From the UHGV virus genome UHGV-0074814: a stretch of 52,958 nt of DNA; one strand, 5' to 3'. The position numbers and the translations under genes were made by a program. Shown piece after piece: positions 1-51,296 of this stretch; the first letter of the stretch is position 1; every line of letters starts with the position of its first letter. The notes under the pieces were generated by a model. That model had not been told where the DNA came from. It searched no databases and worked only from the letters and a program-made list of their open reading frames with translations. The stretch comes from a virus.

Positions 1-405
1 ATGGATCAGGTCGTTGTTTTTCAAAAGATGTTTGAGCAAGTGAGAAAAGAGCAAAACTTCTCCTGGTTTTATTCAGAATTAAAACATCACCGTATTGCAC
101 ATTACATTTATTATCTGGCTACGGATAACATCAGAATTATTACTCACGATGACACGGTTTTGTTATTAAGAGGAACCAGGAGCCTGTTAAAAGTTAGTAC
201 GATCAAGAACCCAACTAAAATAAAAGAGGCCGCATTGCTTCATATTCGCGGAAAATCTACATTTCGGGAATACTGTTCAACACTGGCAGGCGCAGGCGTT
301 TTCCGGTGGGTTACTGATGTTAATCATAACAAACGCAGTTACTACGCCATTGATAATACGCTTTTATATATTGAAGATGTAGAAAATAATAAACCATTAA
401 TATAA
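1..405 (+). CDS. hypothetical protein in left flank (134 aa); possibly DUF1398-like
   Basis: Complete ORF outside the icd repeat; no motif recognised with certainty; family guess from memory only. Confidence 0.3.
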   Translation: MDQVVVFQKMFEQVRKEQNFSWFYSELKHHRIAHYIYYLATDNIRIITHDDTVLLLRGTRSLLKVSTIKNPTKIKEAALLHIRGKSTFREYCSTLAGAGVFRWVTDVNHNKRSYYAIDNTLLYIEDVENNKPLI

Positions 406-620
406 CTAAAGTTGGGAGCTTAAGAAATGCTTCATAATTCAGTAAGGCATTAGCATAATGGAAATAAAAGTGCAGAGACCATCCCTATGGATGATTAATA
501 CTGTCTTTTTATTGCCCCCCATAATTAATCACCAGACCAATACGATCAAATTGATATTTGAAATGTGTTCACTTGACTTTTGATACGTTATTTTATAACG
601 GTTAACATATTTATAAAAAC

Positions 621-643
621 AACGGGCGTGTTATACGCCCGTT
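621..643 (-). terminator. rho-independent terminator hairpin downstream of icd 3' fragment
   Basis: 9-bp perfect stem aacgggcgt/acgcccgtt with 5-nt loop; on minus strand followed by GTTTTTAT; lies just past the icd stop. Confidence 0.45.
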
Positions 644-666
644 TCAATATTTAACACATATAGAGA

Positions 667-831
667 TTACATATTCTTGATGATCGCGTCACCAAACTCT
701 GAACATTTCAGCAGTTTAGCGCCCTCCATCAGACGTTCGAAGTCATAGGTTACGGTCTTGGCGTTGATTGCGCCTTCCATACCTTTAACAATCAGGTCAG
801 CCGCTTCAGTCCAACCCATATGGCGCAGCAT
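667..831 (-). pseudogene. icd: icd 3'-terminal fragment (copy 1, att-associated; last ~54 codons only)
   Basis: Minus-strand translation [54 protein letters not shown]-stop matches isocitrate dehydrogenase C-terminus; no upstream icd body. Confidence 0.8.
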
Positions 832-1368
832 TAGATTTAGAAAATTATTATATCCAATTGAATTAAAACAATTTTATACTTAACGAACATCTAAACTTGT
901 TTTTTTACCTTCACCATAACTCGCTGATTTTGTATAGTTTACGTAGCGTTTTGATAACCACTTTATGGCAAAATGGAGGTTCGCTTGAAAACTTCTGTTC
1001 TTATCCAGAAATTAATGGAAATTGACAAAACTGTACTATTCGATGCGGACGTAGTGACCGGTGAGGAATGGTGGCCAACCCCGATTTCTCGTGTTTATCA
1101 CAATCCGCCACATACTTATGTAGAATTTTAAACAGGTGAACAATCTCAAAATGAATCTGACGAGCTAAGTGTTTATAGCGAATTACAAATTTGTGCACAT
1201 CGAATGATGCAAATTAGAGATTTTGTGCAATCTAACGAGGGACTGAAACCTGAAAAAATTGTTTCGGAAATAAACATTCAAATTGAACGTATTAAAAAGT
1301 GATGGCTGAAGCAATTCTGAAACACTAATTCATATTCTATGTTATTCATACCAATGTGGATTTAACTC

Positions 1369-1432
1369 CCACCAACCCACCAACCCACCAACCCACCAAC
1401 CCACCAACCCACCAACCCACCAACCCACCAAC
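1369..1432. repeat. perfect tandem simple sequence repeat, 8 copies of CCACCAAC
   Basis: Counted directly: 8 identical contiguous 8-bp units from 1369 to 1432. Confidence 0.95.
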
Positions 1433-1689
1433 CATGATTGGGCGGCGCAAGAAACTAATATCAATTAAAACAGCAAGTTATCAGTCTAAACAGAACACCA
1501 ACGGGATGGAGGAGAGACAAAAAATATCCAATGAAACCGTAGCGCGTCAGCATTCAAAAGCGGGGTTTCTTATTTTTACTTCACCAGTAACAAATACACT
1601 GTATCATAACTACATAAAAATGATTGTTCTGACTCAGATGAATTTCTTACTCTTGTGGAATGTCACTTAATGTTATTTATAGGTAAACA

Positions 1690-3579
1690 ATGAAATCCGA
1701 AACGCTAACCATCCAGCAAATTTTCCAAAATCAACGACAATATCGTGTTCCATTCTATCAACGTGCCTACGTATGGACGCAACGAAACCAATGGTCAGCT
1801 TTGTTGGAGGATATCTTCGAAAAAGCACAGAGCCGACTTTCGGGAACAAAACCAACCCCTCATTTCCTCGGCGCGGTGGTGCTGGAACCTCAACTCAAAA
1901 ACAGCTTGTTAGGTGTAGATACCATACATATTATTGACGGCCAGCAACGTTTAACCACTCTTCAATATATTCTGGCATCCATTCGATTATCATTGCGTGC
2001 TACAGGCCTTTCTGAACTGGAAGGGTTAGTATTGACTTGCTTGAAAAATACAAACGAAGCAACGATGAGAAATAAAAAGGTAGAATGCTTCAAACTGTGG
2101 CCAACTTTTCGAGATCAAACTCATTTTATTCAAAGTCTTAATGTTGATAATATTGACGATCTCCGTAATGTATTTTCTGATAGCTTCACGCAACATGGTA
2201 CGTTACGTAAACATTTCAACCACCCGCCGTCACTAGAGGCATTATGGTTTTTTACTGAAGCCTTTATAAAATGGATTAAAATAGAAAACCACTCACCACA
2301 AGAAAATGCTGTAGCACTAATTGAGGCTGTCTTGACGGATCTGAAACTGGTAAGCATATTTCTCGAAGCTGAAGATGATGCCCAAATAATTTTTGAAACA
2401 TTAAATGGGCGAGGAGCGGAACTTCATGCAACGGATCTTATTCGCAACTATATCTTTATGTGCGCTGAGCATGAAAATATTAATGCTATTGAATTATATG
2501 AAAATGAGTGGAAGATCTTTGAAGATAAATACTGGTCGGAAAAGCAACGCCGTGGACGTATTAATAAACCACGCATGGAGTGGCTTGTACATGCGACATT
2601 GCAATCAGAAAGGCAGCGTGAAATTGATCTGTCTCGCCTTTACAATGAGTATCGTGATTATGTAAGTAAGGACTTGCCTTCACAACGAGCAGATCTGCAA
2701 GTAAAGCGCCTCAAACAATATGCATCACAATATAAAGAATTGGTTGGTGGTTTTGGCACAACCCCCATCTCACACTTTGGACATCGCATCGCAGCCTATG
2801 ATGTGACGACACTCTATCCGCTTGCTTTGTTCATTTCGATAGCTAACATCGCCGATGATGAGAAAGCAGCCATGTATAATGATCTTGTCTCCTACGTAGT
2901 ACGAAGATCCGTATGTGGCCTGACGCCAAAGAATTACAACAATGTATTTATGAATGTATTGCGACACTTGTCTAAAACGGAAATTTCCAGTGTTGAGTTA
3001 CGTAATATCCTCAATAGCTTAAATGGCGAAGCCTCACGTTGGCCTGGGGACTCAGAATTTCTCAACGCTTGCATCAATGCTCCACTTTATCCTGGCAGGC
3101 TCGACGCACCGAAAATGCGCTCAATGTTAACGGAACTTGAAAGAGAACTTTGTCGCCAAGTGAAGACAGAAAAGCCTGATGTTCCAAATCTTTCTAATCT
3201 CGATATCGATCATCTTATGCCTCAAAGTTGGTATTCCTGTTGGCCTCTCGAAAATGGTCATATGGTGACAAATTCAGATGCTACGGTAATGAACCAAATT
3301 GTTCTGTCTGGAACCGATCTTACCCCTGAACAGCTACTGGTAAGGAAACGGCAACAAGCGATAGCTACGTTGGGAAATCTAACTTTGCTTAACCTTAGCG
3401 TAAACCGTTCCGTTCAGAATGCTGTATTTCTGAAAAAACGTGATGCTCTCATCGTCCACACCAATCTACGACTGAACATACCACTTATACTTAAGGATAA
3501 ATGGGATGAGAGTGAAATACAGGAGCGAGGTAAAAAGTTGGGGGAAATTGCATTGAAAGTATGGCCAAAATACGATTAA
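1690..3579 (+). CDS. DUF262/DUF1524 family protein, GmrSD-like type IV (modification-dependent) restriction endonuclease candidate
   Basis: N-terminal FYQRAYVW and IIDGQQRLTT (DUF262/ParB-like DGQQR motif); C-terminal DIDHLMPQS His-Me/HNH-like motif (DUF1524); SD AGGTAA 5 nt before ATG. Confidence 0.6.
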   Translation: MKSETLTIQQIFQNQRQYRVPFYQRAYVWTQRNQWSALLEDIFEKAQSRLSGTKPTPHFLGAVVLEPQLKNSLLGVDTIHIIDGQQRLTTLQYILASIRLSLRATGLSELEGLVLTCLKNTNEATMRNKKVECFKLWPTFRDQTHFIQSLNVDNIDDLRNVFSDSFTQHGTLRKHFNHPPSLEALWFFTEAFIKWIKIENHSPQENAVALIEAVLTDLKLVSIFLEAEDDAQIIFETLNGRGAELHATDLIRNYIFMCAEHENINAIELYENEWKIFEDKYWSEKQRRGRINKPRMEWLVHATLQSERQREIDLSRLYNEYRDYVSKDLPSQRADLQVKRLKQYASQYKELVGGFGTTPISHFGHRIAAYDVTTLYPLALFISIANIADDEKAAMYNDLVSYVVRRSVCGLTPKNYNNVFMNVLRHLSKTEISSVELRNILNSLNGEASRWPGDSEFLNACINAPLYPGRLDAPKMRSMLTELERELCRQVKTEKPDVPNLSNLDIDHLMPQSWYSCWPLENGHMVTNSDATVMNQIVLSGTDLTPEQLLVRKRQQAIATLGNLTLLNLSVNRSVQNAVFLKKRDALIVHTNLRLNIPLILKDKWDESEIQERGKKLGEIALKVWPKYD

Positions 3580-3601
3580 TGCAATTAATAAAATGATTAT
3601 A

Positions 3602-3625
3602 GCGGCCTTACATTAGTAAGGCCGC
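3602..3625. terminator. hairpin between convergent DUF262 gene and pin remnant (possible bidirectional terminator)
   Basis: Perfect 10-bp stem gcggccttac/gtaaggccgc with 4-nt loop; A/T-rich flanks. Confidence 0.4.
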
Positions 3626-3804
3626 AACTCACTATTAAATCCTTTAATTTGCATCAAGAACAGCACTGTCAGCCCTAGGCTCTCGGACTTTGTACCGCTT
3701 ATCTTGTCTTCAAAAATCAGCTCGCATCCTGCACAGTTCAACGCATTACGTTGTAGATCGATTTTCTGGTCATTTGTTGATACGCAAACATAGCCAATAA
3801 GCAT
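3613..3804 (-). pseudogene. truncated serine invertase (Pin/Gin/Hin family), N-terminal ~45 residues conserved then divergent
   Basis: MLIGYVCVSTNDQKIDLQRNAL matches invertase catalytic N-terminus (Ser in VSTNDQ); ORF only 64 aa versus ~185-190 aa; SD GAGGGAG before ATG at 3804. Confidence 0.65.
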
Positions 3805-3830
3805 GGTAGCTCCCTCTGACAAAAGCAGGA

Positions 3831-4220
3831 ATGATGCCATTTTCTCGTTATTTCTGCATTTTCATAAACGTTGGTTTGGGAGAATTATCTCTGGCTGGCA
3901 CTGCATCGGGTGTCATTGGTCTGAATGGGTATGTAACGATTCCGTTAATTATTTCAGGTTCCCGGAGAACACTGATTATTCAGTGGGGGCAGGCGAGATT
4001 TGGTGGGTCTGGTGGTGAAGATGCCGGATATCTTAATGATTTTCCTTTTGCCTTTCCGTCAGCATGTTATGGAATGATAGTTAGTCATGTGGGGCATACA
4101 CCTTCAGGCGCAGGAATCCTGTCGGCTTCTGCAATTACATCAAATCAGTTCCGCGGTTTTTCAAGCATAGCGACTGCTGCAAATGCTGTATTAGGTCGTT
4201 ATATCGCTATAGGGGGTTAA
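3831..4220 (+). CDS. alternative tail-fibre C-terminal variable segment (silent orientation)
   Basis: Gly/Ser-rich fibre-like sequence inside the invertible segment, opposite strand to the expressed fibre gene; true reading frame entry is at the crossover site. Confidence 0.4.
   Translation: MMPFSRYFCIFINVGLGELSLAGTASGVIGLNGYVTIPLIISGSRRTLIIQWGQARFGGSGGEDAGYLNDFPFAFPSACYGMIVSHVGHTPSGAGILSASAITSNQFRGFSSIATAANAVLGRYIAIGG
3859..3884. repeat. invertase crossover site (gix/pix-like), left arm of invertible tail-fibre segment
   Basis: ttttcataaacgttggtttgggagaa; its reverse complement resembles site at 5389-5414 and the Mu gix core pattern AAACC-N-GTTT. Confidence 0.5.
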
Positions 4221-4221
4221 T

Positions 4222-4659
4222 ATGTTTTATAGTCCATCATTAAACATTTTTGTGAATCCTGCGCTTAAGGATGATTACATTAATGCAAATTCATGGCCAG
4301 ATGATGCTCTGGCTGTCAGTGATGATGTTTATAATGAATTTGCAATCAATACGCCCCCATATGACAAAATTCGTGTTGCAGGAAAAAATGGATTACCCAC
4401 ATGGGCACTAATACCTCCACCATCGCATGAAGAACTTATTCAACAGGCAGAATCAGAAAGGCAATTATTGCTTAATCAGGCCAACGAATACATGAACAGT
4501 AAACAATGGCCCGGTAAAGCCGCTATTGGTCGTCTGAAAGACGAGGAACTGGCACTATATAATTTGTGGCTGGATTACCTGGACGCACTGGAACTGGTGG
4601 ATACCTCCAGTGCTCCAGATATTGAATGGCCTACACCTCCGGTAACTCAGGCCAGCTAA
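4222..4659 (+). CDS. tail fibre assembly protein (alternative copy, silent orientation)
   Basis: C-terminus LVDTSSAPDIEWPTPPV matches conserved Tfa C-terminal motif VDTSTAPDIEWP. Confidence 0.6.
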   Translation: MFYSPSLNIFVNPALKDDYINANSWPDDALAVSDDVYNEFAINTPPYDKIRVAGKNGLPTWALIPPPSHEELIQQAESERQLLLNQANEYMNSKQWPGKAAIGRLKDEELALYNLWLDYLDALELVDTSSAPDIEWPTPPVTQAS

Positions 4660-5026
4660 TCTCAGGAGCCGTCGAAGTGTCGACGGCTTTTACTTCTTTT
4701 TTGTAGTCCATCCAGGCGGATAGTTTTTCTTTATCTGTACTGCTGATATCACCAAGCATTAATTCCACTCGCCAGTCAGCTGTGACATTATCGGCATGAG
4801 CAAGTAACTGCATTCGCTGATTTTCAGCACGTGCGACATAATCAATCGCCGGAGATTTCAGTACCGGTAAACCATTTTCATCTGACGTGATTAATTTACC
4901 CCCTTCCTGCTGTCCGGCAATTAATTCATTGTATAAGTCTGTACTTATCTCAACAATGTCAGCAGGCATGTCGCTGTTTATACCATCAAAGAAAAAACCA
5001 TTAGTCGATTTTGAGAAATAAATCAT
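4631..5026 (-). CDS. tail fibre assembly protein (expressed orientation)
   Basis: C-terminus AVDTSTAPEISWPELPEV matches Tfa motif; follows the tail fibre gene; start taken at the ATG (MIYFSK) at 5026 instead of the upstream non-ATG start of the ORF track. Confidence 0.6.
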   Translation of the reverse strand: MIYFSKSTNGFFFDGINSDMPADIVEISTDLYNELIAGQQEGGKLITSDENGLPVLKSPAIDYVARAENQRMQLLAHADNVTADWRVELMLGDISSTDKEKLSAWMDYKKEVKAVDTSTAPEISWPELPEV

Positions 5027-5034
5027 AGATATAC

Positions 5035-5691
5035 CTATACACCGATTGCTACCCAAAAACAGGACCTTTCATATTTGACAATTTCTCCCTGAGATATACC
5101 GCCAACAATTATATAGAACTGTGATTTGGTGATATCAGAACAGTTCGCAATGCCCATTGCAGATATACCCGCCACCGACGTTGTATGTGGTACAGCCAAC
5201 AGCGCAAGTGAACGACTTGGGAATGTTACCGGGTAAGTCACCGTATAGTTTGATGCTCCACTGACTATACCCCACTGAATAATCAGACCTGAAGGGAGTT
5301 TTTGAAAACCCGTTGATGAAAGTGAACTGGCAAACGCCGCCATATCCGGAATTTGGTTTTGCTCGTTACCCACATTTCGTTTTGCCGCTTCTCTCAAACC
5401 AAGGTTTTGAAGAGCCGTTTTCACCGTGCCGTCCGATTTGATATCGCCAAACGGATTTTTGCGACTTAACAGCAGCGCACGAAGCGCGGTAAGCAGCTGG
5501 TCATGCCGCCCCTTCTCCAGGCTGGCACCGGATGCCTCCACCACGCTGCAGAGCTCTTCCTGCAACATGTCAAAGTAGTCATCATCCAGATCGGTGGCAG
5601 GCGTGCCGGTCTGGGGGTTACCACGGGTAAAACCGTTCTTACCCGCGCCGAACTTATCCTTCTGCGCGGTTTTCGTGTCTATACGATGCAT
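5035..5691 (-). CDS. tail fibre protein (Mu S / e14 Stf-like) with constant N-terminus and invertible C-terminus
   Basis: Position after baseplate genes; crossover site at 5389-5414 lies inside the gene; followed by Tfa. Confidence 0.55.
5389..5414. repeat. invertase crossover site, right arm, inside tail fibre gene
   Basis: ttctctcaaaccaaggttttgaagag is an inverted near-copy of 3859-3884. Confidence 0.5.
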
Positions 5692-25423: not shown

Positions 25424-26599
25424 ATGGATATAACTTGTTTAGAATGTGGCAATGTTCTTGACGACCCAACTGTAGCTTGCGATAAATGCGGTGCCACGCC
25501 TCATGTTGTAGTGCTGGGCAAACAATCGTACTTTCCTATTGGTGCTGTAACAGCAAATCTTGAAAAAAATGATTCAAGAGCATTTGATTATCGATTAGGT
25601 GAAGTTTGGGATCTAAAAAATGAAGTCACATCTGAATTCATAACCAGAATTGAGAAAAAATTTAGCCGAAAAAACAAATTTCATAACTTCCTAGACTCAG
25701 ATCACAACCCTTCATCCATTCCTACGATCCTAAAAAAATACATTAATAAAAATAATGAATTCATTGATTTATCTAGAGCTATAATAGAGAAGCTTAAACA
25801 TAATGCTAATAACGAATCGAGAGTTGCCCAACTTCAGGGGGGGAGCGTTGTTTTCATCCACTATAAGTCTACCGAACCAGAGGATTTGGGGAAACTTCTA
25901 ATCGTAATGGTTGATAAACAAAGCGCCTATGACTTTGATTCGGATAAGTTGACCCCAACAAGATTAAATCCAATTAATACCGATGCCTTACGGCAGGCTG
26001 CGATGTTCGATTTAACTTTATTCGAAGCCAGTTATCCAGAAAACAAGGGTGACTCATATGTACATTTCTTGCAAGGTAAATCTAAAAGCGATTTTTTCAA
26101 AGACTCATTAGGTTGCCGACATGATTCGGACAATAAAAGAAGCATTCAGCAATTATTCAGTGCTATAGATATTTTTGCTAGTAAAAACTCACTCGGTCGT
26201 GTACTGCGTGATACTATTGACAATGAAGTTAAATCCTTACTGGAAAAAAAATCAAAAGATAAACACGGAAATAAGTCCGTTAAGATAGAGGATATTTCAA
26301 AAATAATTGACTCATGCCTGACTGATTCACACAAATGTAAGGGAACGTTTGTCGATTTTGTTAATCTTAATGGTTTCCAGATTGACCCTCAATTTGAACC
26401 AACTCCTAAAGCAGCTGAAAGCGCGCTTACAATTGAAGTGGCAGATAACGACAATAATTTTAAGTTGAAAATAATGCGTGGAGCTATTGGAGACGAAAAG
26501 TCAAATAAGCCTGTAATTCTCACTGACAACAAATGCGAAATTGTGATAAAATTGAGTCAGGCAAATTATGATGAACTCAAAAGATATAGAGACAGCTAA
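25424..26599 (+). CDS. zinc-ribbon protein with NdpA/YejK-like (NA37 nucleoid-associated) domain; candidate defence component A
   Basis: N-terminal CLECG-N10-CDKCG zinc ribbon; central GGSVVFIHY...YVHFLQGKSKSDFFKDSLGC resembles YejK GGIVLFCHY...[23 protein letters not shown]; AT-rich relative to flanks. Confidence 0.5.
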   Translation: MDITCLECGNVLDDPTVACDKCGATPHVVVLGKQSYFPIGAVTANLEKNDSRAFDYRLGEVWDLKNEVTSEFITRIEKKFSRKNKFHNFLDSDHNPSSIPTILKKYINKNNEFIDLSRAIIEKLKHNANNESRVAQLQGGSVVFIHYKSTEPEDLGKLLIVMVDKQSAYDFDSDKLTPTRLNPINTDALRQAAMFDLTLFEASYPENKGDSYVHFLQGKSKSDFFKDSLGCRHDSDNKRSIQQLFSAIDIFASKNSLGRVLRDTIDNEVKSLLEKKSKDKHGNKSVKIEDISKIIDSCLTDSHKCKGTFVDFVNLNGFQIDPQFEPTPKAAESALTIEVADNDNNFKLKIMRGAIGDEKSNKPVILTDNKCEIVIKLSQANYDELKRYRDS

Positions 26600-26601
26600 T
26601 A

Positions 26602-27816
26602 ATGACAATTGCTGATGACTTATCAAGATTAGCGCAGATTATTAACGGAGCCTCAAGCAGAGTTGAGGGCTACTACACTGTCATAAGTCTTGAAGAAAGC
26701 ATTGTTATTGTAAATAGTTCTGAAATAATTAGACTGTTACAATCTATAGGTTATAAAAAGGCAACAACCTGCATCGAAAATAATGAAATTTGGCTAGATC
26801 GCCAAGCTTCATCTTGGGATGATGCTATAATTTATGAGAATGTTGAGTCTTTTTGGTCTAGAGTAAACACCCAAAACGCTCTTCCGAAAAATTATATCAT
26901 CGGAACGCCGTTAATACTCCCTACTTCTAAGAATGAAAGCATCGAAAAAATCCATATTTTCTTTATGTGGAAAGATATCCTTTCATTAATTTCTGATCAT
27001 CATAACAGTGACTGCTCTGTCTTATTTTTCACCAATGAAGACAAAAGTTATACAGTCGAACTCACGCATTTTTTACAATATAGCGAGATTAATCGCTTAT
27101 CGAACTCGTCTCTTAAATATGAAATTATAAAGGAGCTTCTCGACACAATAAAAATCAATGATTTACACAAAAGCGAGCGCAAGCTCGTTATACGCTCAGC
27201 CATAAACGAAGTATTTAAAGCAAATGGTACGTTCAATTTCTTTGACTTGCTTAACTCTACTGAACTCGTCAGGAAAAAATATGATGAACTATATGAGATT
27301 TACACAAAGAGGTTTTCTGTAAATAAAATTCTTAACGAACTCGATGAGAAAAATCTTGAGTTCACGAGTAAAATTAACGAATTCATATCATCTAATCAGA
27401 CAAAAGCATTGACTATTCCCGGTGCATTAATAGCAGCTGGTGGCTTAGTGAAGGCTAATGAAACAACCGAAGCAATATTGATTATCGCAGGACTTTGGAT
27501 GATAAAAAAAGTCAATTACATTTCTATTGAGATATTCAATGAAACATTCGACAACTTACGTTCTCGAGTGGAGTCCGCTTTCGATAAGTATTTAAAGTTT
27601 GAAGAAAATAAAGAAATCAAAGATAATGCAGATAGTATTAAGAGTAGCATTACAGGTTTGATTGATAAAGCTAAAAAAAGGATGAGAACTGTTAAATATC
27701 TCGCATCAGCCATGTTTTATGGAGGCCTTATTTACGTTGGATATAAACAGTTCCCAGTCTTTTTTGAAAAATCGGCAGTAAATCTATTTTATTTTTTATG
27801 CCATACTATAAGCTAA
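26602..27816 (+). CDS. membrane protein with two C-terminal TM helices; candidate defence component B (effector?)
   Basis: Starts 3 nt after the stop of the upstream gene; hydrophobic segments ALTIPGALIAAGGLV...AILIIAGLWMI and YLASAMFYGGLIYVGY. Confidence 0.5.
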   Translation: MTIADDLSRLAQIINGASSRVEGYYTVISLEESIVIVNSSEIIRLLQSIGYKKATTCIENNEIWLDRQASSWDDAIIYENVESFWSRVNTQNALPKNYIIGTPLILPTSKNESIEKIHIFFMWKDILSLISDHHNSDCSVLFFTNEDKSYTVELTHFLQYSEINRLSNSSLKYEIIKELLDTIKINDLHKSERKLVIRSAINEVFKANGTFNFFDLLNSTELVRKKYDELYEIYTKRFSVNKILNELDEKNLEFTSKINEFISSNQTKALTIPGALIAAGGLVKANETTEAILIIAGLWMIKKVNYISIEIFNETFDNLRSRVESAFDKYLKFEENKEIKDNADSIKSSITGLIDKAKKRMRTVKYLASAMFYGGLIYVGYKQFPVFFEKSAVNLFYFLCHTIS

Positions 27817-31346: not shown

Positions 31347-31840
31347 TAAGCCCCCACGAAATTCCCTGACAGATACCACTCTTCACCCGATGCAGCGCGC
31401 TTGCTGCTTTTCCGTAAGCACCGCTCACGACGTGCCAGAAAATTGTTTCGTTCTGGCTGGGAGTGGCTTTCACGGAATGCCGCCATCCACACGGTTGCAG
31501 CACGACGGTATAAGCCCCTTGACTCCAGTTCTTCAGCCTGGCGGGTCAGGCACAAAATCACCCGGGGATCGTTAGTGCCGACATAGAAATTGCGCACAGG
31601 TCTGGTTTCACGAACTGGTTGTGGTTCCGGCTCCTGCGCTCTCTCAGTCAGGCGTGGGAAATGTCTGCGTGTATCTCCTTCACAACGGTGAGCCACACGC
31701 CCACTCTGACGTAACTTGCTTGCTGACTGCAGAACGCGCTGCCGTGAGTAACCTGCAAAAGCATCCGCAATGTCTCCGGAAGTACAGCCCGGATGGGCTT
31801 CAATGAATTTCTGAACGTCATTCAAAAGACTCATGCTCAC
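31346..31840 (-). CDS. hypothetical replication-region protein
   Basis: 164 aa, translationally coupled between O-like gene and Dam gene. Confidence 0.4.
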   Translation of the reverse strand: MSMSLLNDVQKFIEAHPGCTSGDIADAFAGYSRQRVLQSASKLRQSGRVAHRCEGDTRRHFPRLTERAQEPEPQPVRETRPVRNFYVGTNDPRVILCLTRQAEELESRGLYRRAATVWMAAFRESHSQPERNNFLARRERCLRKSSKRAASGEEWYLSGNFVGA

Positions 31841-32778
31841 CCCCTGAATCCTGCCGGGATCTGGCTGTAGTCCACATTGTCGTAACTGGCTTTGAAGTAC
31901 GGGTCTTCGCGTTTTTCTGTGTACGTGCTGACGGACGGCGATAAGCGCAGGGAAAGCTCATCCCATTTTTCCCGCAGCTTCGACGGGCTGAGCACGTTAC
32001 GGCACCAGAACGGATCGCGGCTGACGCGGCTGTACATCTCGCAGATTTGTTTGTGAGTACGACCATCCTGCACACACATCAGGCGAATTTCGTTTGCCCA
32101 GGCTGTCCAGTTCGGTTCTTTGGGACGAACCACCTCGCCGTCACATTCGGCAGCCTGCTCGTACAGGGCGATGATTTTTTTCCAGAGCCACTGTGCGCAG
32201 GTCAAATCATCCTGCGTCCCCCACTGGCGCTTTTTAGGGCTGAATACAACCGCATCAGGATGGCGAGTTAAAAAATCCTGTTCAGCCGTCTGCGTGTCCG
32301 GTTGCGAAGCGTCCGGACGAGAAGTTTTTTTATCTGACGGATCATGTTTTGATTTTACTGACGGATCCCCGCCAGATTCTGACGGGTGAAAACCCGCTTT
32401 TTTGCCAGATTTCGACGCATCAAATTTTGACGGGTCAGATTTTGATGCGTCAGATTTTGACGGGTCAGAATCTGACAGTTGAGAAAATGCCGCTGCCTGA
32501 AGCTTCGCAACGTTAAGCTGATAAACATTCGACGCATTGCGGTTACCCTGGCGACGCGCCTTACGCGTTAACCAGCCTTCTGCTTCCAGCCGTGCGATAG
32601 CCGTTCTGACGGTACTCATCCCCGCGCCAATCTGACGGGCAATGGTTTTAATTGATGGCCAGCACACACCTTCGTCATTACTGAAATCAGCCAGGCGGGC
32701 CATAATTGCCACGCTGGATAACTTCATGCCTGATGCAGCGCAACCATCCCATACATAGCCGGTTAATTTAGTGCTCAT
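31837..32778 (-). CDS. replication initiation protein (O-like, N-terminal winged HTH) containing ori iterons
   Basis: N-terminal HTH SIKTIARQIGAGMSTVRTAIARLEAEGWL; internal peptide repeats encoded by 15-bp DNA iterons. Confidence 0.6.
   Translation of the reverse strand: MSTKLTGYVWDGCAASGMKLSSVAIMARLADFSNDEGVCWPSIKTIARQIGAGMSTVRTAIARLEAEGWLTRKARRQGNRNASNVYQLNVAKLQAAAFSQLSDSDPSKSDASKSDPSKFDASKSGKKAGFHPSESGGDPSVKSKHDPSDKKTSRPDASQPDTQTAEQDFLTRHPDAVVFSPKKRQWGTQDDLTCAQWLWKKIIALYEQAAECDGEVVRPKEPNWTAWANEIRLMCVQDGRTHKQICEMYSRVSRDPFWCRNVLSPSKLREKWDELSLRLSPSVSTYTEKREDPYFKASYDNVDYSQIPAGFRG
32351..32481. repeat. tandem iterons (~7 copies of 15-bp unit AGATTTTGACGGGTC and variants); putative origin of replication
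   Basis: Read directly: gattttactgacgg / agattctgacgggtg / agatttcgacgcatc / aaattttgacgggtc / agattttgatgcgtc / agattttgacgggtc / agaatctgacagttg. Confidence 0.6.
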
Positions 32779-37824: not shown

Positions 37825-38085
37825 ATGAGGTTATCAAAAATGCTTCAAATGCTGACACTTGAGGAATGGGCTGCGGAAAAATTTAGGAGTAATCCTCCAA
37901 GTGTGTCCACATTGCGTCGTTATGCTAAGCAGAATTTATTTTGTCCACCAGCAATGAAACAAGGTCGACTCTGGCGAGTACGTGAGGACGCAGAGTTAGT
38001 TGGGGAATTAGTTACTCCAGTAATCAAGAAAAGTGATTCTATTATTCTGCAAAGGATTTTAAGCAATGGCAGCCAGACCACGTAA
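37825..38085 (+). CDS. excisionase (lambda Xis-like); start may be one of two downstream ATGs
   Basis: MLTLEEW...STLRRYAKQNLFCPP resembles lambda Xis; overlaps integrase start. Confidence 0.6.
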   Translation: MRLSKMLQMLTLEEWAAEKFRSNPPSVSTLRRYAKQNLFCPPAMKQGRLWRVREDAELVGELVTPVIKKSDSIILQRILSNGSQTT

Positions 38086-39193
38086 AAATAATGTTTCAGT
38101 ACCTAACTTGTATCCGCTTTATAGTAGAAAAGTAAATAAAGTCTATTGGCGATATAAGCATCCAGTGACCGGGAAATTTCATTCGTTGGGCACAAATGAA
38201 GCTGAAGCTATTGCTATTGCCACTGAAGCTAACACTCGTCTGGCTGAGCAAAGAACCCGGCAGATTCTAGCTATCAGTGATAGGATCGCAACCAGCAAAG
38301 GAAAAGCGATCACAACGTCAACCTGGTTAGATCGCTATCAAGCGATCCAGGATGACAGGCTCAAAAGTGGTGATATAAGACTCAACACCTATAAGCAAAA
38401 AGCTAAACCAGTATCCTTGCTCAGAGAACGAGCAGGAATGAAGTTGATCTCATCCGTTGATGTTAGAGATATAGCACAATTGCTTGATGAGTATATTGCA
38501 GCTGGACAGCCTAGAATGGCCCAAGTCGTTAGGTCTGTATTGATCGATGTGTTTAAGGAAGCACAGCATTATGGCGAAGTTCCGCCAGGGTATAACCCTG
38601 CTCTTGCGACGAAGCAACCCAAAAGAAAAATTACCCGTCAACGCCTCAGCCTGGAAGAATGGCAAAAAATATTCGATATAGCAGACGCCAGTCATCGTTA
38701 CATGGGAAATGCCATGCTCCTAGCTTTGGTCACTGGGCAGCGTTTGGGAGATATATCCAAAATGAAATTTAGTGATATTTGGGAAGATCATCTTCACGTC
38801 ATTCAGGAAAAGACTGGAAGCAAAATCGCTATCCCTCTTTCTCTTCGCCTCAATGCGATTAACTGGAGTTTACGCGATGTAATAGCCCGCTGCCGTGACT
38901 ATGCAGTCAGCCCATACCTAGTGCATTTTTTCCGTTCAACTTCACAAGCAGAACGTGGGGCACAGGTTAAATCCAATACATTGACGATGAACTTTAGTAA
39001 AGCGAGAGATTTAGCAGGAATTGACTGGGGTGATGGCTCACCCGCAACATTCCATGAACAAAGATCGTTATCTGAACGCCTGTACAAGGAGCAAGGGATA
39101 GATACCAGAAAGCTACTTGGGCATAAAACACAACAACAAACCGATCGTTACCATGATGACCGAGGGAAAGGTTGGAGCAAAGTAGCTTTGTGA
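38066..39193 (+). CDS. tyrosine integrase (lambda Int family, e14 IntE-like)
   Basis: 375 aa; C-terminal catalytic region with R...HxxR...Y (HKTQQQTDRYHDD); adjacent to Xis and att-side icd repeat. Confidence 0.85.
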   Translation: MAARPRKNNVSVPNLYPLYSRKVNKVYWRYKHPVTGKFHSLGTNEAEAIAIATEANTRLAEQRTRQILAISDRIATSKGKAITTSTWLDRYQAIQDDRLKSGDIRLNTYKQKAKPVSLLRERAGMKLISSVDVRDIAQLLDEYIAAGQPRMAQVVRSVLIDVFKEAQHYGEVPPGYNPALATKQPKRKITRQRLSLEEWQKIFDIADASHRYMGNAMLLALVTGQRLGDISKMKFSDIWEDHLHVIQEKTGSKIAIPLSLRLNAINWSLRDVIARCRDYAVSPYLVHFFRSTSQAERGAQVKSNTLTMNFSKARDLAGIDWGDGSPATFHEQRSLSERLYKEQGIDTRKLLGHKTQQQTDRYHDDRGKGWSKVAL

Positions 39194-39403: not shown

Positions 39404-40519
39404 TTAAATTAAATCAAATAGCCCATGTTCATCTATAGCCTTTGAACTAATTAAGTTCGCGGCTTCTATGTCATTGTCACTTGCCTCAGAAATAAGGAAA
39501 AATGAATCAACATGATTTTGCAAAATAATTTCCTTATACTTCTTGAGCCATTGTAATTTACCTGTAGTGAACAATACTTTACGCGGTAGCAAAATACGGC
39601 TAAAAACTGATGGAAGATACTCACTTCTATTAAATGGAATAAAAGGGTCGCCTAAAGAAAGAATAGTTAGACGATTAAATTCACCGTGCGAATTCAATTT
39701 TTCAGCTGATTTGGCTATACCACTTGGTAAAAAAACACCTGTCTTGATACCGTTGCGTAAAGCAACAACAGCCATCATTTTATCAAAGGCAGTACCTCCA
39801 AATAATAAGGAATATCCTTTTTTAACAGAAAGATCAATAGTATCAAGAACAACTTGTTTTTCTATATCACTTGGTGACGTGCTCGAAATTATCGAAAGAT
39901 CAAAATCAGTAAATAACTGCCCAGTATAATAAAGATTTTTGCCGGTGAAAGTTGACAACTTTAAAGGAAACATTTTATCATCATGCTTAATTTCAGATAC
40001 ATTAAGATCTGTTAAGGATGGATAGTTAAAGTTTGGTGAGGCTTTTCCGTGTTTATTATTTTTTGATGCCTGCGGACTAAAAACTAGAATTTCATTTTTA
40101 TTATTACACAGGTAATCCTGTATCATTTTTTTTACAATATCCCAATCAAGACCACCGTGACCACAACCTAAAGCTGGCAGGGTGATTGTTTTTCCATGTT
40201 TATTATCCAAATATTTCGAGAGCCAATGCAGTCCTTTTTCGATATATTCGTACTTAGACTTATTTCTCCAATGATCCTTGGTGGGAAAGTTTATGATTTC
40301 TATTTCCTTACCATACGTATCATTACCTTTCCAAACAGCTGGTCTTCCTGGAGATATTTCTCCTTTTTTACACAGCAATACGTATTCATTATACATTTCA
40401 GGAAACTTATTCTTAAAAGCAAAAGCAACCCCTGCCCCCATTACACCAACACAATTAACTGTATTAATTCTAATGTCAGCAGCATAATCGAAAAAATCAC
40501 CATCAACATATCTAATCAT
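39404..40519 (-). CDS. macro-domain protein (DarG/TARG1-like) with C-terminal Rossmann-like domain; candidate antitoxin
   Basis: GDFFDYAADIRINTVNCVGVMGAGVAFAFKNKFPEMY and ALGCGHGGLDW macro motifs; start set at ATG with SD AAGGAGG (ORF track extends to 40645); AT-rich. Confidence 0.55.
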   Translation of the reverse strand: MIRYVDGDFFDYAADIRINTVNCVGVMGAGVAFAFKNKFPEMYNEYVLLCKKGEISPGRPAVWKGNDTYGKEIEIINFPTKDHWRNKSKYEYIEKGLHWLSKYLDNKHGKTITLPALGCGHGGLDWDIVKKMIQDYLCNNKNEILVFSPQASKNNKHGKASPNFNYPSLTDLNVSEIKHDDKMFPLKLSTFTGKNLYYTGQLFTDFDLSIISSTSPSDIEKQVVLDTIDLSVKKGYSLLFGGTAFDKMMAVVALRNGIKTGVFLPSGIAKSAEKLNSHGEFNRLTILSLGDPFIPFNRSEYLPSVFSRILLPRKVLFTTGKLQWLKKYKEIILQNHVDSFFLISEASDNDIEAANLISSKAIDEHGLFDLI

Positions 40520-40991
40520 AAAACCTCCTTTGGTCAGAGTATACATCCTTATTTCTGGCTCTTCAATTCTATTGTCAAAAACTTTTACAAAGTCTGCATC
40601 AGTAAAACTGATGGCGCATTTTAAAATTAAAATCAATATGTCCATATCAAACGTTATATTTGTTATTTTTTGTATTTATTATTCATATCCATCATGTGCT
40701 ATTAAATCGCCCAAAAGAACATAATAAATTATGTGCACCACTTTCTTCTTATTGAATTTTGGATTACATTACGATCTAAATTAGATCTTTTGCCAATATC
40801 ATAAACATATGCAGCAAACGTTGCAACAAGCTGTTCTCATTCTAACAGTTAGTAGAATATAAACTCTGTAATTAGCACACTGAATTCCCTTCATCTATGA
40901 GTTACAACATCCTTTAAGTGAATAGTATTGTTAGTTTAAATCTATTAATATCATTCATAAAACTATTTTATATAGTTAAAGTCATTATAAA

Positions 40992-41226: not shown

Positions 41227-42573
41227 TCATAAACTGTTCCCCTGCAATCTTTGGAGAACTTCATCCCGGAGATCATCGATCCCGTCAGAAACCTGAGCTA
41301 ACCAAACTTGACTTAATGAGCCAATATCAGCCTTACTTAGGGCTACTAACATATTGATATCTTCAGAAGATGTAACTATATCGAACAACTGATTTTTATT
41401 CCTCCCTTTAGCTACTATTTCCCCCAATAAATCATCATACGTAACTAACATCATTATTTTTCTAACTAGATCGGTTTGTATGACTGGCAGATCTTCTGTC
41501 AAAATTCGTTGTAGCATCGCAAGTGACTTCCTAGGATGCTCTCCATCTGCCTCATGCATGTAATTATTATTCCAACGTGTTTTAGGCCCTTTGCCTATAT
41601 CATGCAAATAAGCGGCCAACTCCAAAACTTCCTGATGAATAGAGTCTAATTGATAAAACTCTGGTGAATTAACTACAAGACTAGCCACTCGTCGACTATG
41701 AGAGCCAACATCTTCATTATGAGGCCCGTAGCTCGTCCCCAATCCATCGATATCTTCAAGCTCTTGGATGGAGGAGAAATTACCACGAATTGCACTTAGA
41801 GCATCACTAATACTTTGAAATTTTGGCCTCGTTTCTCGTTGAAATGAAGTTACATATTCAATAGCTTCATCAAAAAGCATTTTTAACACTACCGGTCCCG
41901 TGACTAAGGATGAGGACCAGTTTCCAGGTTGATAATAATAATGTTGAAAATCACCCTCAACAATATTTGGTGGAACAATACCTTTGTTCTGGAAAATACT
42001 CCTCACAATATCAGACATAGAACGATTCCATGTAATTATCTGATTTATTTCGCTTAAAGAGACATGATCTGGCAGCAAAAGTTCTGCCATCTTTTTATGC
42101 CTCTGAGTCTCGTCAGCATAACCCCATGCATTATTATCTATGGTAGCCCAATCTAATACATCAAGCTGGTCAGCTTGAGTATTACCAGAATAAAAGTTCG
42201 GTGGATTAACTGTATTTGCGGAAGCATCTGTAAAATATGACCCATTCCTTGTTTCGAGTGATAATATAGAAACTGAAAGATAGATAATAAATTGCTGATC
42301 TACATTTTTTTTATGAAGAACAGACAATTGCATGGGCGTTTTTTTTGCAAAATAAAAAGGAACATAATCATGAACACAACGACCATTCGTATTAGGCACC
42401 TGCATCACTGCCCTACGCCCCTGTATTCCTTCATCAGCAACATTCACATGTGATATACGACGTGCAATTTTCTGATTAGTCGAAAACAGCCCAGTTTCAA
42501 TTATTGATTCAAGATTATCTACTGACGTAAAGTGATATGCATTTCGGTGTCTATGGTGAACAGGAACTGTCAT
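41227..42573 (-). CDS. DarT-like (DUF4433) ADP-ribosyltransferase domain fused to HD phosphohydrolase domain; candidate toxin
   Basis: N-terminal YHFTSVDNLESIIETGL, HDYVPFYF and YFTDASA resemble DarT; C-terminal HSRRVASLVV...LAAYLHDIGK is an HD motif; SD GGGGGA; AT-rich. Confidence 0.5.
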   Translation of the reverse strand: MTVPVHHRHRNAYHFTSVDNLESIIETGLFSTNQKIARRISHVNVADEGIQGRRAVMQVPNTNGRCVHDYVPFYFAKKTPMQLSVLHKKNVDQQFIIYLSVSILSLETRNGSYFTDASANTVNPPNFYSGNTQADQLDVLDWATIDNNAWGYADETQRHKKMAELLLPDHVSLSEINQIITWNRSMSDIVRSIFQNKGIVPPNIVEGDFQHYYYQPGNWSSSLVTGPVVLKMLFDEAIEYVTSFQRETRPKFQSISDALSAIRGNFSSIQELEDIDGLGTSYGPHNEDVGSHSRRVASLVVNSPEFYQLDSIHQEVLELAAYLHDIGKGPKTRWNNNYMHEADGEHPRKSLAMLQRILTEDLPVIQTDLVRKIMMLVTYDDLLGEIVAKGRNKNQLFDIVTSSEDINMLVALSKADIGSLSQVWLAQVSDGIDDLRDEVLQRLQGNSL

Positions 42574-42928
42574 GTATCCCCCATGAAAAACTATAAAAAT
42601 TTAGGTAGTGTGCTTTATATTATTACAGTAATTGTAAATTACCGATATAGGATATCAACCTTCCTGTGATCTAGGTCACTCAGGATGAGCAACTTCCTAT
42701 TGATTAGGATTCAAAATGTTTGAAATGTGCGCTTACAGAACCACAGGCCACTTTGAGCGAAGAACAGACCTAAATATAAACGAGGGTTAATCAGCAATAA
42801 TTATAATAAACTGAGGTATGCCTAATTGGAACTTGACAATATAACTACCATCTCTCCCTAAACAACTAGGAGTTTTGATAACTTATTTTGATAAAATTTT
42901 GATAACCGTTAGCAGACTAACAAAAAAC

Positions 42929-42951
42929 AACGGGAGCGTTACACTCCCGTT
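42929..42951 (-). terminator. rho-independent terminator hairpin downstream of icd 3' copy 2
   Basis: Stem aacgggag/ctcccgtt, 7-nt loop; on minus strand followed by GTTTTTTGTT. Confidence 0.45.
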
Positions 42952-42974
42952 AATAGATTTAACAAATCACGATA

Positions 42975-43139
42975 TTACATATTCTTGATGATCGCATCAC
43001 CAAATTCTGAACATTTCAGCAGTTTAGCACCTTCCATCAGACGTTCGAAGTCATAGGTTACGGTCTTCGCGTTGATTGCGCCTTCCATACCTTTAACAAT
43101 CAGGTCTGCGGCTTCAGTCCAACCCATATGGCGCAGCAG
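42975..43139 (-). pseudogene. icd: icd 3'-terminal fragment (copy 2, attL-side)
   Basis: Translation [54 protein letters not shown]-stop; ~9 mismatches vs copy 1 over 165 bp. Confidence 0.8.
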
Positions 43140-43598
43140 TATATAAAAATTATGTATTCAACTCGCTGATATTTAATCATAAATATTATTTTCTTGTCTT
43201 TGTATTAGCCAAAATCAACTTTATTCAACCGTTTGATTTCATTGACGTTCGTTTTTATTTTGGGGAAAGATTTTCTCTACCATTTATATCAAAATTACAA
43301 GTCTACATTTTATTAACATCTCAATACATGTGTGGCCTTGCAAGCCATTGCGAGGCCTTATGTGTCTCAGTTTTGTCCCGCCTTGTATTACGACTTGCAT
43401 AGCCAATGAAGATAAACGTGACGACAAACAAAGCAGCTGTCTTCTTTTCTTTCACACTTTCCCCACTCAGCAGCATGCATACCTTCTACTATAACTGTAG
43501 TGAATGTCTATTATGAGCGAACTGCGGACATCGTGGAGACAACATGCTGCTGGGTGCGGATATCCCATGGCACGTCATATCGCTCGCCGTATTACTTG

Positions 43599-45055: not shown

Positions 45056-45970
45056 ATGCACTCGATAAAAAAAGTAACCATGCTCTTGGGGGGGCTCGCA
45101 CTCACCTGCTCGATCGCATTTCAGGCAAGTGCAACTGAAAAATTCAAGGTCATTACAACATTTACCATCATCGCGGATATGGCCAAAAACGTGGCGGGAG
45201 ATGCTGCAGAAGTCTCATCCATAACCAAGCCTGGTGCAGAAATTCATGAGTATCAGCCTACCCCTGGCGATATTAAACGTGCGCAGGGGGCACAACTGAT
45301 TCTCGCCAATGGTATGAATCTGGAATTGTGGTTCCAACGCTTTTACCAGCATCTCAATGGGGTTCCAGAAGTAATTGTCTCTTCGGGTGTGACGCCTGTA
45401 GGGATCACCGAAGGACCCTATGAGGGCAAACCTAACCCCCATGCATGGATGTCGCCAGATAATGCTCTGATTTACGTCGATAATATTCGTGATGCGTTGA
45501 TAAAATACGATCCGGCAAATGCACAAACCTACCAACGCAATGCCGATACTTATAAAGCCAAGATTACCCAAACCCTTGCCCCCCTGCGTAAGCAGATTAC
45601 GGAACTCCCTGAGAATCAGCGATGGATGGTCACCAGTGAAGGGGCTTTTTCTTATCTCGCACGCGATTTGGGGCTAAAAGAGCTTTATCTGTGGCCGATT
45701 AATGCCGATCAACAAGGAACACCGCAGCAGGTACGTAAGGTTGTTGATATAGTTAAGAAAAATCATATCCCGGCAGTCTTTAGCGAGAGTACGATTTCCG
45801 ATAAACCAGCGCGTCAGGTTGCGCGTGAAACCGGCGCACACTACGGCGGTGTGCTCTATGTCGATTCCCTGAGCACAGAAAACGGCCCGGTACCGACGTA
45901 TATCGACCTTCTTAAGGTTACTACCAGTACGCTGGTACAGGGAATTAAAGCTGGGAAAAGGGAGAAATAA
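45056..45970 (+). CDS. sitA: Mn/Fe ABC transporter periplasmic binding protein SitA
   Basis: Signal peptide, 304 aa, first gene of four-gene ABC operon with Fur and MntR boxes. Confidence 0.8.
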
Positions 45971-46797
45971 TGATGCAATCTGCAGGCATTGTCGTTAATG
46001 ATGTTACTGTCACCTGGCGTAACGGGCACACAGCACTGCGCGATGCATCCTTCACAGTACCAAGTGGATCTATTGCCGCTCTGGTTGGGGTAAACGGTTC
46101 CGGAAAATCGACGTTGTTTAAAGCGATTATGGGATTTGTGCGTCTGACCAGCGGAAAGATATCTGTTCTGGGTATTCCCACGCGACAGGCGTTACAGAAA
46201 AACCTGGTTGCCTACGTCCCTCAGTCAGAAGATGTTGACTGGTCATTTCCTGTACTGGTGGAAGATGTGGTGATGATGGGCCGCTATGGGCATATGGGTA
46301 TGTTGCGTATCGCCAAAAAGAGGGATCGTCAAATTGTCACCGATGCGCTGGAACGTGTCGATATGGTGAATTTTCGCCATCGACAAATCGGCGAGCTTTC
46401 CGGTGGACAAAAGAAACGCGTCTTTCTGGCGAGAGCGATTGCACAGCAGGGTGATGTGATCCTGCTGGATGAACCTTTTACTGGCGTTGATGTGAAAACC
46501 GAAGCCAAAATCATCAGCCTGTTGAGGGAGTTACGCGCGGAAGGCAAAACGATGCTTGTCTCAACACACAATCTCGGATCCGTCACGACATTTTGCGATT
46601 ATACGGTCATGGTCAAAGGCACCGTCCTGGCAAGCGGGCCGACAGACACCACTTTTACAGCCGAGAACCTAGAGCTGGCTTTTAGCGGCGTACTGCGCCA
46701 TGTCACACTTAACGGCTCGGAAGAAAGCATTATTACTGACGATGAACGCCCTTTTGTGGCTCATCGACCGTCAGCGGTGCAGAGGGAAGAAAGATGA
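45970..46797 (+). CDS. sitB: Mn/Fe ABC transporter ATP-binding protein SitB
   Basis: Walker [10 protein letters not shown], signature LSGGQKKR, Walker B ILLDEP. Confidence 0.85.
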
Positions 46798-47651
46798 ACG
46801 TGCTACTGGAACCCTTCAGCTATGAATATATGCTCAATGCGATGTGGGTCTCGGCGATGGTCGGCGGTCTCTGCGCTTTCCTGTCATGCTATCTGATGCT
46901 AAAAGGCTGGTCGCTGATTGGCGATGCGTTGTCGCACTCTATTGTCCCGGGTGTTGCGGGGGCATATATGCTGGGGCTTCCGTTTTCTCTGGGAGCCTTC
47001 TTTTCCGGCGGACTGGCTGCGGGCAGCATGCTGTTTCTTAACCAACGCACCCGCTTAAAAGAAGATGCCATCATCGGTCTGATCTTCTCGTCCTTTTTTG
47101 GCCTGGGGCTGTTTATGGTGTCATTGAACCCGACATCTGTGAACATTCAGACCATCGTCCTGGGCAATATTCTGGCAATCGATCCGGCGGATATCCTGCA
47201 ACTCACTATCATTGGCATTCTCTCGATCATCGTGCTTTTTTTCAAATGGAAAGATCTTATGGTGACCTTTTTCGACGAGAATCACGCCCGTGCTATTGGA
47301 TTGCATCCGGGCAGATTAAAACTCCTCTTCTTCACCCTGCTGTCGGTTTCGACCGTTGCGGCGCTGCAAACGGTTGGTGCCTTTCTGGTGATCTGTCTGG
47401 TGGTGACTCCCGGTGCAACAGCATGGTTGTTAACCGATCGTTTTCCCCGCCTGCTCATGATTGCTGTAACTATTGGCAGTGTAACCAGTTTCCTCGGCGC
47501 GTGGGTCAGTTACTTTCTGGACGGCGCGACAGGTGGAATCATCGTGGTGGCGCAGACACTGCTGTTTCTTTTAGCATTTGTCTTTGCGCCCACCCATGGG
47601 CTTTTGGCAAATCGTCGGCGTGCGCATAAGGCGCTGGAGGATCGCTCATGA
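46794..47651 (+). CDS. sitC: Mn/Fe ABC transporter permease SitC
   Basis: 285 aa polytopic membrane protein, overlapping starts in operon. Confidence 0.8.
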
Positions 47652-51244: not shown

Positions 51245-51296
51245 TCCACAAATAAAAAAGGCACCATTTCTGGTGCCCGAATTTGGGTTTTAAAAT

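Follow-up and report, generated by a model that had tools for sequence, protein, structure and literature searches.

Whether a perfect tandem array of eight CCACCAAC units upstream of a restriction gene works as a phase-variation switch for that gene, or merely lies beside it, is the question raised by the first lines of UHGV virus genome UHGV-0074814, a stretch of 52,958 nucleotides that was analysed whole and is called the window below. The restriction gene is gmrSD, and the surrounding DNA is that of an Escherichia coli prophage. A preliminary description of the sequence had proposed a switch: gain or loss of one 8-bp unit would shift the frame of a leader open reading frame (ORF) that runs through the repeat and stops just before the gene. 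Most likely, the tract is not a frameshift on/off switch of this kind. The reading that we prefer, to which we assign a probability of about 0.62, is that the tract is a by-product: an octanucleotide microsatellite in a non-functional relic of ssrA, the gene for transfer-messenger RNA (tmRNA), with gmrSD transcribed from its own promoter and the enzyme affected little or not at all.

Searched with a regular expression, positions 1369–1432 contain exactly eight CCACCAAC units end to end, as the preliminary description had reported, and Tandem Repeats Finder returns the same array (1368–1433, period 8, 8.2 copies, 100% matches, score 132). The self-match run at a lag of 8 reaches 58, at position 1368, and the next longest in the 53-kb window is 7; among 100 shuffles the longest lag-8 run averaged 7.4, with a highest value of 10. 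The array far exceeds chance. To our knowledge, long perfect arrays of this kind are rare in E. coli. From the end of the tract it is 148 nt to the predicted −35 hexamer of gmrSD and 257 nt to its ATG.

The DNA that follows the tract retains homology to the 3′ end of ssrA. When the 288 nt beyond the tract served as query in a sensitive blastn search, the matches fell into two classes. One comprises the last ~250 nt upstream of other gmrSD genes; the other covers 1433–1524 only, at 75–77% identity, and falls in unannotated DNA after ssrA in ~900 E. coli genomes. In CFT073 this second match comes immediately after the ssrA 3′ end, GGGTTCAACTCCCGCCAGCTCCACCA, and in SFE8 it directly follows a tmRNA gene that is both annotated and confirmed by ARAGORN, and reaches the terminator of that gene. 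In the alignment, GCGGGTTCAACTCCCGCCAGCTCCACCAAT-CATGATTGG of ssrA corresponds to GTGGATTTAACTCCCACCAAC-CCACCAAC-CATGATTGG of a two-unit allele of the locus, and the homology runs on through the trailer to a terminator remnant, with 68% identity over 170 aligned columns. The hairpin of this terminator is deleted and AAAAGCGGGGTTTCTTATTTTT alone is left, at ~1556–1577. The window segment thus has a T-arm start, a CCA end and trailer-like sequence after it, and aligns with SFE8, CFT073 and 8GC; the ssrA fragment of CFT073 begins at the same position as the window copy. The region is not a complete tmRNA gene, homology being confined to the final ~26 nt and the trailer: ARAGORN identified no tmRNA gene in the window, and Rfam identified no tmRNA in 800–1800 even at E ≤ 10, nor did either tool report another RNA gene in this region.

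The position of this segment suggests how it came to lie there. Judged from its sequence, the surrounding element is an e14-like prophage of ~42 kb in the isocitrate dehydrogenase gene icd, placed between two icd fragments and carrying gmrSD at one end. The backbone of the 8GC prophage (icd fragment and a gene for a 113-residue protein) is 91% identical to 832–1352 of the window, and at the same backbone position 8GC carries an undecayed ssrA 3′ fragment with its trailer and an intact terminator. The cargo after that fragment is a type II restriction-modification pair in place of gmrSD, and homology between the two backbones stops at ~1352, the edge of the ssrA core. Because the undecayed fragment of 8GC stands at the same position, the tract appears to be an expansion inside the acceptor-strand and CCA portion of a fossil ssrA-type attachment segment. 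We use the term fossil since the segment lies away from the present integration junction, the current borders of the prophage being the icd fragments at 667–831 and 42923–43157. These data suggest that the ssrA-like segment is most likely a fossil attachment segment, carried along with the gmrSD cargo of these prophages as part of one cassette. The gene upstream of it (973–1302) is likewise decayed, being a pseudogene in all seven repeat-bearing loci examined, each with the same TAA at 1129–1131.

A short path leads from ssrA to the repeat. The native ssrA acceptor end contains an imperfect direct repeat of 8/9 nt, CCGCCAGC / TCCACCAAT, and the change from CCGCCAGC-TCCACCAAT to CCACCAAC-CCACCAAC needs two G-to-A substitutions, one T-to-C substitution and one 1-nt deletion. 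In the history proposed here, the decayed ssrA 3′ end, trailer and terminator would have been the non-functional DNA that hosts the tract; the few substitutions and the deletion would have produced two perfect units as a seed; and slipped-strand mispairing, which we infer, would then have varied the tract from 2 to at least 11 units, mismatch repair dealing poorly with 8-nt loops. It is plausible that the two-unit allele, found in 14 genomes, represents the ancestral state.

The tract varies widely in length. Positions 1140–1760 were queried against 5426 complete E. coli genomes, and the locus was found in 55 of them (~1%), with match lengths that deviate from the query in steps of exactly 8. 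By match length, 14 genomes have two units, a further 14 have three (two of these inferred from lengths of 580 and 579), seven have four, four have five, 13 have six, one has seven and two have 11; one locus per unit class was fetched and its count verified by sequence. Six viral and eight metagenome contigs carry alleles of 2, 3, 4, 5, a perfect 7 and at least 10 units. Identical 560-nt flanks occur with 3, 4, 5, 6, 7 and 8 units, a locus at a contig end with an identical 260-nt right flank has at least 10, and a second flank haplotype, marked by five shared substitutions, was seen with 2 units and with 7. Variant units have also spread within arrays, CCACTAAC in H22 and CCATCAAC in 20KM0223N.

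Prophages that are otherwise nearly identical differ in unit count. A42 (4 units) is separated by one single-nucleotide polymorphism (SNP) in 22.9 kb from VTB96929v (6 units), and by one SNP in 22.9 kb from S87 (6 units); VTB96929v and EC28 (3 units) show no SNPs in their first 22.1 kb; and the window, with its 8 units, differs from EC28 by 4 SNPs in 22.4 kb, none of them in the 1368-nt left flank, over which (1–1368) the two are identical. Since unit counts differ among prophages only 0–4 SNPs apart, the tract changes roughly once for every point substitution anywhere in ~20 kb, which would place its per-site rate of change at least four orders of magnitude above that of point substitution. 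Several near-duplicate genome pairs share one count (for example, the two O166:H15 strains, 22-245/22-250 and DAM/ANT), so switching is slower than the extreme rates of some contingency loci. The comparison of unit counts across related genomes that the preliminary description had called for therefore bears out its expectation of variability: 2–11 units stand on identical or near-identical flanks, and the tract is hypermutable.

The gene beyond the tract is a DUF262 restriction gene, as first described. Its product has GmrSD_N (DUF262) and GmrSD_C (DUF1524) domains (Pfam, E 1.7e-33 and 4.9e-20, respectively), matches the PADLOC mREase_IV model over its full length at 1523.7 bits, and retains the catalytic residues D507, H508 and N522 (the DH...N motif of the His-Me nuclease domain). 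By these features the enzyme is GmrSD, a characterised type IV restriction endonuclease specific for glucosyl-hydroxymethylcytosine DNA. At least 1000 contigs encode this exact protein, whose UniRef cluster is named after Q8KTH0_ECOLX. The passages of PMC4437046 that concern Eco94GmrSD of STEC_94C and the CT596 GmrSD describe enzymes with the same 629 residues, DUF262 and DUF1524 domains and D507/H508/N522, and reveal no difference from the window enzyme; Eco94GmrSD likewise lies beside the tail-fibre genes of a prophage, of ~41.5 kb, cuts glucosyl-hydroxymethylcytosine DNA, and restricts T4 lacking ip1 about a million-fold (PMC4437046). According to the same passages, overexpression of GmrSD is toxic, and the native gene is presumed to be under tight control (PMC4437046).

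A sigma-70 promoter-like site at 1580–1607 is probably gmrSD's own promoter. Repeat-free gmrSD loci at other prophage sites, which encode 93–97% identical proteins, keep the proximal ~110 nt including this site. When window-type sequence is compared with the 32-4 locus (L010), upstream identity peaks at 88% in the bin from −100 to −61, where the −10 hexamer and the first part of the leader lie, as against 62% in the −35 bin (−140 to −101) and 33–72% in the other upstream bins. A scan combined with inspection by eye, on both strands, identified no promoter with the tract in its spacer or hexamers. We propose that gmrSD would be transcribed from this conserved site, ~150 nt downstream of the tract; because the site lies downstream, tract length would probably have little or no effect on the enzyme. 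As a separate observation, the gmrSD leader contains a 16-codon upstream ORF (ATG 1620 to TAA 1670, MIVLTQMNFLLLWNVT); in L010–L012, where gmrSD is 93% identical, a 10-nt difference fuses this ORF in frame, which would add 20 N-terminal residues.

Table 1. Positions of the repeat tract, the gmrSD locus and other features of the window
Feature	Position	Strand	Basis or remark
ycgX	1–405		Window start
Duplicated icd 3′ fragment, one end of e14-like prophage	667–831	−	Translation matches icd C-terminus
Promoter-like sites upstream of tract	910–938; 1097–1126	+
Pseudogene of 113-residue hypothetical protein	973–1302	+	In-frame TAA at 1129–1131; frameshift near 3′ end
Diverged copy of last ~26 nt of ssrA (T-arm 3′ half, acceptor 3′ strand, CCA)	1356–1432	+	Alignment; holds the repeat
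Leader ORF of the preliminary description	1356–1670	+	Probably an accidental frame
Microsatellite, eight perfect CCACCAAC units	1369–1432	+	Pattern search, Tandem Repeats Finder, self-match test
Diverged ssrA 3′ trailer and intrinsic terminator	1433–1577	+	blastn, alignment
Sigma-70 promoter-like site, TTCACC-N16-TATCAT	1580–1607	+	Consensus scan, conservation
Conserved gmrSD leader with 16-codon upstream ORF and weak AGGT ribosome-binding site	1608–1689	+	Sequence, cross-locus comparison
gmrSD, single-chain type IV restriction endonuclease, 629 residues	1690–3579	+	Pfam, PADLOC, catalytic residues
Truncated Pin-type recombinase	3613–3840	−	First ~45 resolvase-domain residues left
37-kD nucleoid-associated-protein homologue	25424–26599	+
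ORF of 404 codons, product of unknown function	26602–27816	+
ORF containing 15-bp repeats	31837–32778	−	4.3 copies at 32406–32469
Integrase, lambda-type arm-binding domain	38066–39193		Only integrase found in the window
DarG-like macro-domain protein	39404–40645	−	NCBIfam score below curated cut-off
DarT-like ADP-ribosyltransferase with HD domain	41227–42573	−	NCBIfam score below curated cut-off
Second icd 3′ fragment, other prophage end	42923–43157		89% identical to 615–851
sitABCD of tandem element	45056–48505
Lambdoid tail-fibre and J genes of tandem element	49178–52943

The leader ORF on which the proposed switch depended is present as described, running through the repeat from a GTG start over 104 codons, with PTNPPTHQ repeats in its product, to a stop codon at 1668–1670, 19 nt before the ATG at 1690. 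If its translation were coupled to that of gmrSD, a change of one unit would frameshift the leader and turn the enzyme on or off; the span of the ORF over the tract, its end so near the ATG, a unit length that is not a multiple of three and the variable copy number all fit such a model. However, no recognisable ribosome-binding site precedes GTG 1356, and an in-frame ATG directly after the tract (1434–1436) holds the 79 gmrSD-proximal codons open at any copy number. The GTG itself is in frame only with 2, 5, 8 or 11 units, as in 20 of the 55 genomes, and each of the three frame classes makes up about one third, as expected without frame selection. Moreover, the five CCACTAAC units of H22 place a TAA in every frame, the ORF ends early at a premature stop in 20KM0223N, and in gmrSD loci at other prophage sites (93–97% protein identity) stop codons break the frame. 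The ORF overlies the ssrA relic, the trailer, the terminator remnant, the promoter-like site and the gmrSD leader, and appears to be an accidental frame across them; a match of its peptide to the Pfam 'PT repeat' family fell below threshold and was dismissed. With an unconserved ORF, a restart ATG, random frames and stops within units, translational coupling is, as far as sequence can speak to it, largely refuted, and the frameshift part of the preliminary description has to be given up as very improbable. No better placed is an account in which an ssrA-specific integrase of a resident element duplicates an 8-bp overlap at the pseudo-attachment core. The tract does lie within the core of an ssrA-type attachment relic, and 8 bp falls in the usual range for the overlap regions of tyrosine recombinases; yet we know of no such overlap-duplication mechanism, the only integrase found in the window is that of the prophage in icd, and a continuous series of whole-unit alleles, with variant units propagated in arrays, is typical of replication slippage. 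We consider this account highly improbable. Some assemblers can miscall repeats, and the copy-number differences might on that ground be put down to assembly artefacts, but tracts of 16–88 bp are below typical read length, and complete genomes produced by many laboratories differ, between identical flanks, by whole units without exception, with related genomes in agreement. The likelihood of such an artefact is practically negligible.

A transcriptional role deserves closer weighing. Repeats upstream of promoters or in leaders control hmw1A/2A of Haemophilus influenzae and nadA of Neisseria meningitidis, and the length of the present tract might in a similar way tune upstream read-through into gmrSD, so that cells would differ, by degrees or in an on/off manner, in their level of a toxic defence enzyme. 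The tract might act as a Rho-loading (rut) site that can expand on an untranslated C-rich RNA, through a template-strand G-quadruplex, or by altering spacing or phasing. Several points favour this view and count against neutrality of the tract, which our preferred reading assumes. The tract is hypermutable and belongs to a class of array whose scarcity in E. coli was mentioned above. The intrinsic terminator between it and gmrSD is without its hairpin, and prediction over 830–1800 gave no terminator-like site; the two same-strand promoter-like sites at 910–938 and 1097–1126 lie upstream, and transcripts from them could cross the tract and enter gmrSD. Set beside a rut criterion of at least ~60–80 nt of C-rich, G-poor, untranslated RNA, the predicted tract RNA has 55% C and 4% G over 78 nt and is the most C-rich and G-poor in the window (C-over-G excess 0.54; 99.9th percentile 0.35), a composition in keeping with a Rho-loading site. 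The complementary strand, (GGTTGGTG)n, has G-runs of two to three bases and matches a two-tetrad G-quadruplex motif, defined as at least four G-runs with short loops; the motif match alone was used, ViennaRNA energies being based on RNA parameters. Either the C-rich RNA or the G-quadruplex could make transcription dependent on tract length. The site at 1580–1607 is, for its part, a consensus match backed by conservation, and may or may not act as the promoter. The toxicity and presumed tight native control described in the passages on GmrSD (PMC4437046) would also give stochastic control a plausible benefit.

On the other side of this account stand the conserved promoter-like site of gmrSD downstream of the tract and the repeat-free gmrSD loci, which are common and intact; the other gmrSD loci examined lack the tract. 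As the DNA to the left is backbone that also occurs in a prophage with another cargo, an upstream operator specific to gmrSD is unlikely. Additionally, the minimal two-unit state is kept in 14 genomes, and the equal counts of near-duplicate genome pairs indicate that switching is not extremely fast. Tuning of read-through by tract length thus seems unlikely to us, as does any measurable regulatory effect of the tract. A more specific version, in which the array is a length-tunable insulator before a toxic defence gene, is distinctly unlikely: after decay of the ssrA terminator hairpin, an expanding C-rich, G-free tract would limit read-through as a Rho-loading site or template-strand G-quadruplex, and slippage would supply reversible, heritable heterogeneity of type IV restriction among cells. 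That the tract serves as an adaptive switch is more doubtful still. A by-product microsatellite in an ssrA relic remains the reading that we favour.

Among known systems, the tract is most like typing repeats and, at most, like upstream repeats of the hmw1A or nadA type. Contingency loci of Haemophilus, Neisseria and Campylobacter, including those of restriction-modification genes, have in common with it a long perfect repeat with a unit not divisible by three and copy numbers that differ between near-identical genomes, and here too the repeat adjoins a defence gene. Their tracts, however, lie in coding sequence or core promoters, whereas this one lies 257 nt upstream of gmrSD, outside any conserved reading frame and any core promoter. 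The 7-bp repeats of hmw1A/hmw2A and the TAAA tract of nadA share its non-coding upstream position, with a unit of 7 rather than 8 bp in hmw, but are situated between mapped promoters or operators and the gene; in the window the promoter-like site, known from sequence, is downstream of the tract. Closer in behaviour are the repeats used for variable-number tandem repeat typing, which likewise change by whole units far faster than by point mutation and are neutral or nearly so, though the present tract is prophage-borne and found in ~1% of complete E. coli genomes (55/5426), which sets it apart from core-genome markers; derivation from the 3′ end of a tmRNA is also unusual. Duplicates of tRNA or tmRNA 3′ ends at element borders, such as that of CP4-57 at ssrA, share the T-arm-to-CCA fragment and the trailer-like sequence, but the window copy is decayed (68–77% identical) and away from the junction, the prophage sitting in icd. 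For E. coli, a 2025 review of phase variation lists inversion and Dam-methylation switches only (PMC11868660).

No paper describing the tract was found. A full-text literature search for CCACCAAC returned primers and unrelated matches only, searches on repeat-based phase variation in E. coli and on prophage restriction yielded nothing on this locus, a preprint on phage contingency loci deals with the lytic phages T2 and T4 and not with this locus, and the passages of GmrSD papers that matched term searches make no mention of an upstream repeat. We class the tract as a polymorphic bacterial microsatellite, and one whose origin is unusually clear. A scan for (CCACCAAC)3 in one genome per species gave, among the matches listed, more than 120 unrelated matches in distant phyla, which are apparently repeat tracts unlinked to this locus. 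A phage-genome collection gave no match to 832–3600. At 3548–3605 of an unrelated viral contig of low GC content in IMG/VR (L142), four CCACCAAC units come after TTAACTCCCACCACACCAAC; that contig has neither a tRNA nor a tmRNA gene, and its likeness to the E. coli relic may be coincidence.

The wider surroundings are those of a prophage with exchangeable ends. The window begins with ycgX, followed by the minus-strand icd 3′ fragment, which is annotated as partial isocitrate dehydrogenase in all related genomes. In most of these, iraM and ymgK lie between ycgX and the fragment; both are missing in the window (405–667) and in EC28. The A42 prophage, 99.9% identical, is annotated with myovirus-like tail and HK97-like head genes. 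The 113-residue backbone gene has no Pfam match and is intact in 8GC and EC190486 (3655–3996 of L014 being the intact version of 973–1302). These two genomes carry a type II restriction endonuclease and a cytosine methyltransferase at the position of gmrSD (L014 4020–7000; L015). This arrangement suggests a hotspot of cargo exchange that has the ssrA-like segment as its boundary. At the far end, the DarG-like and DarT-like genes sit between the integrase and the second icd fragment; with these genes opposite the gmrSD end, defence or toxin-antitoxin cargo would be present at both prophage ends. Beyond the second icd fragment lies a tandem element with sitABCD and with lambdoid tail-fibre and J genes.

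A few further features of the window deserve mention. Next to gmrSD, the truncated Pin-type recombinase adjoins opposed tail-fibre assembly genes (3613–5056), and its truncation has probably frozen an invertible tail-fibre segment. The 15-bp copies of CAGATTTTGACGGGT within the minus-strand ORF at 31837–32778 look like replication-origin iterons within a replication gene. The two plus-strand genes at 25424–27816 adjoin minus-strand lysis genes and may be an inserted accessory cassette; PADLOC gave no match for either product.

Were the tract to tune gmrSD after all, E. coli would possess a stochastic means of controlling immunity that has so far been described mainly in Haemophilus, Neisseria and Campylobacter, and the insulator described above would be the species' first bet-hedging switch built on a repeat, as well as the first of any modification-dependent restriction enzyme. 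As a neutral microsatellite, the tract offers a clean natural case of the birth of a repeat, from a two-unit seed in a decayed tmRNA end through expansion by whole units, and a fast-evolving marker for following this prophage lineage. A striking repeat beside a defence gene is not in itself a switch, and copy-number variation alone cannot tell a contingency locus from a bystander. Finally, the order of icd fragment, backbone gene, ssrA-like segment and exchangeable cargo suggests a way in which e14-like prophages exchange defence genes at their ends.

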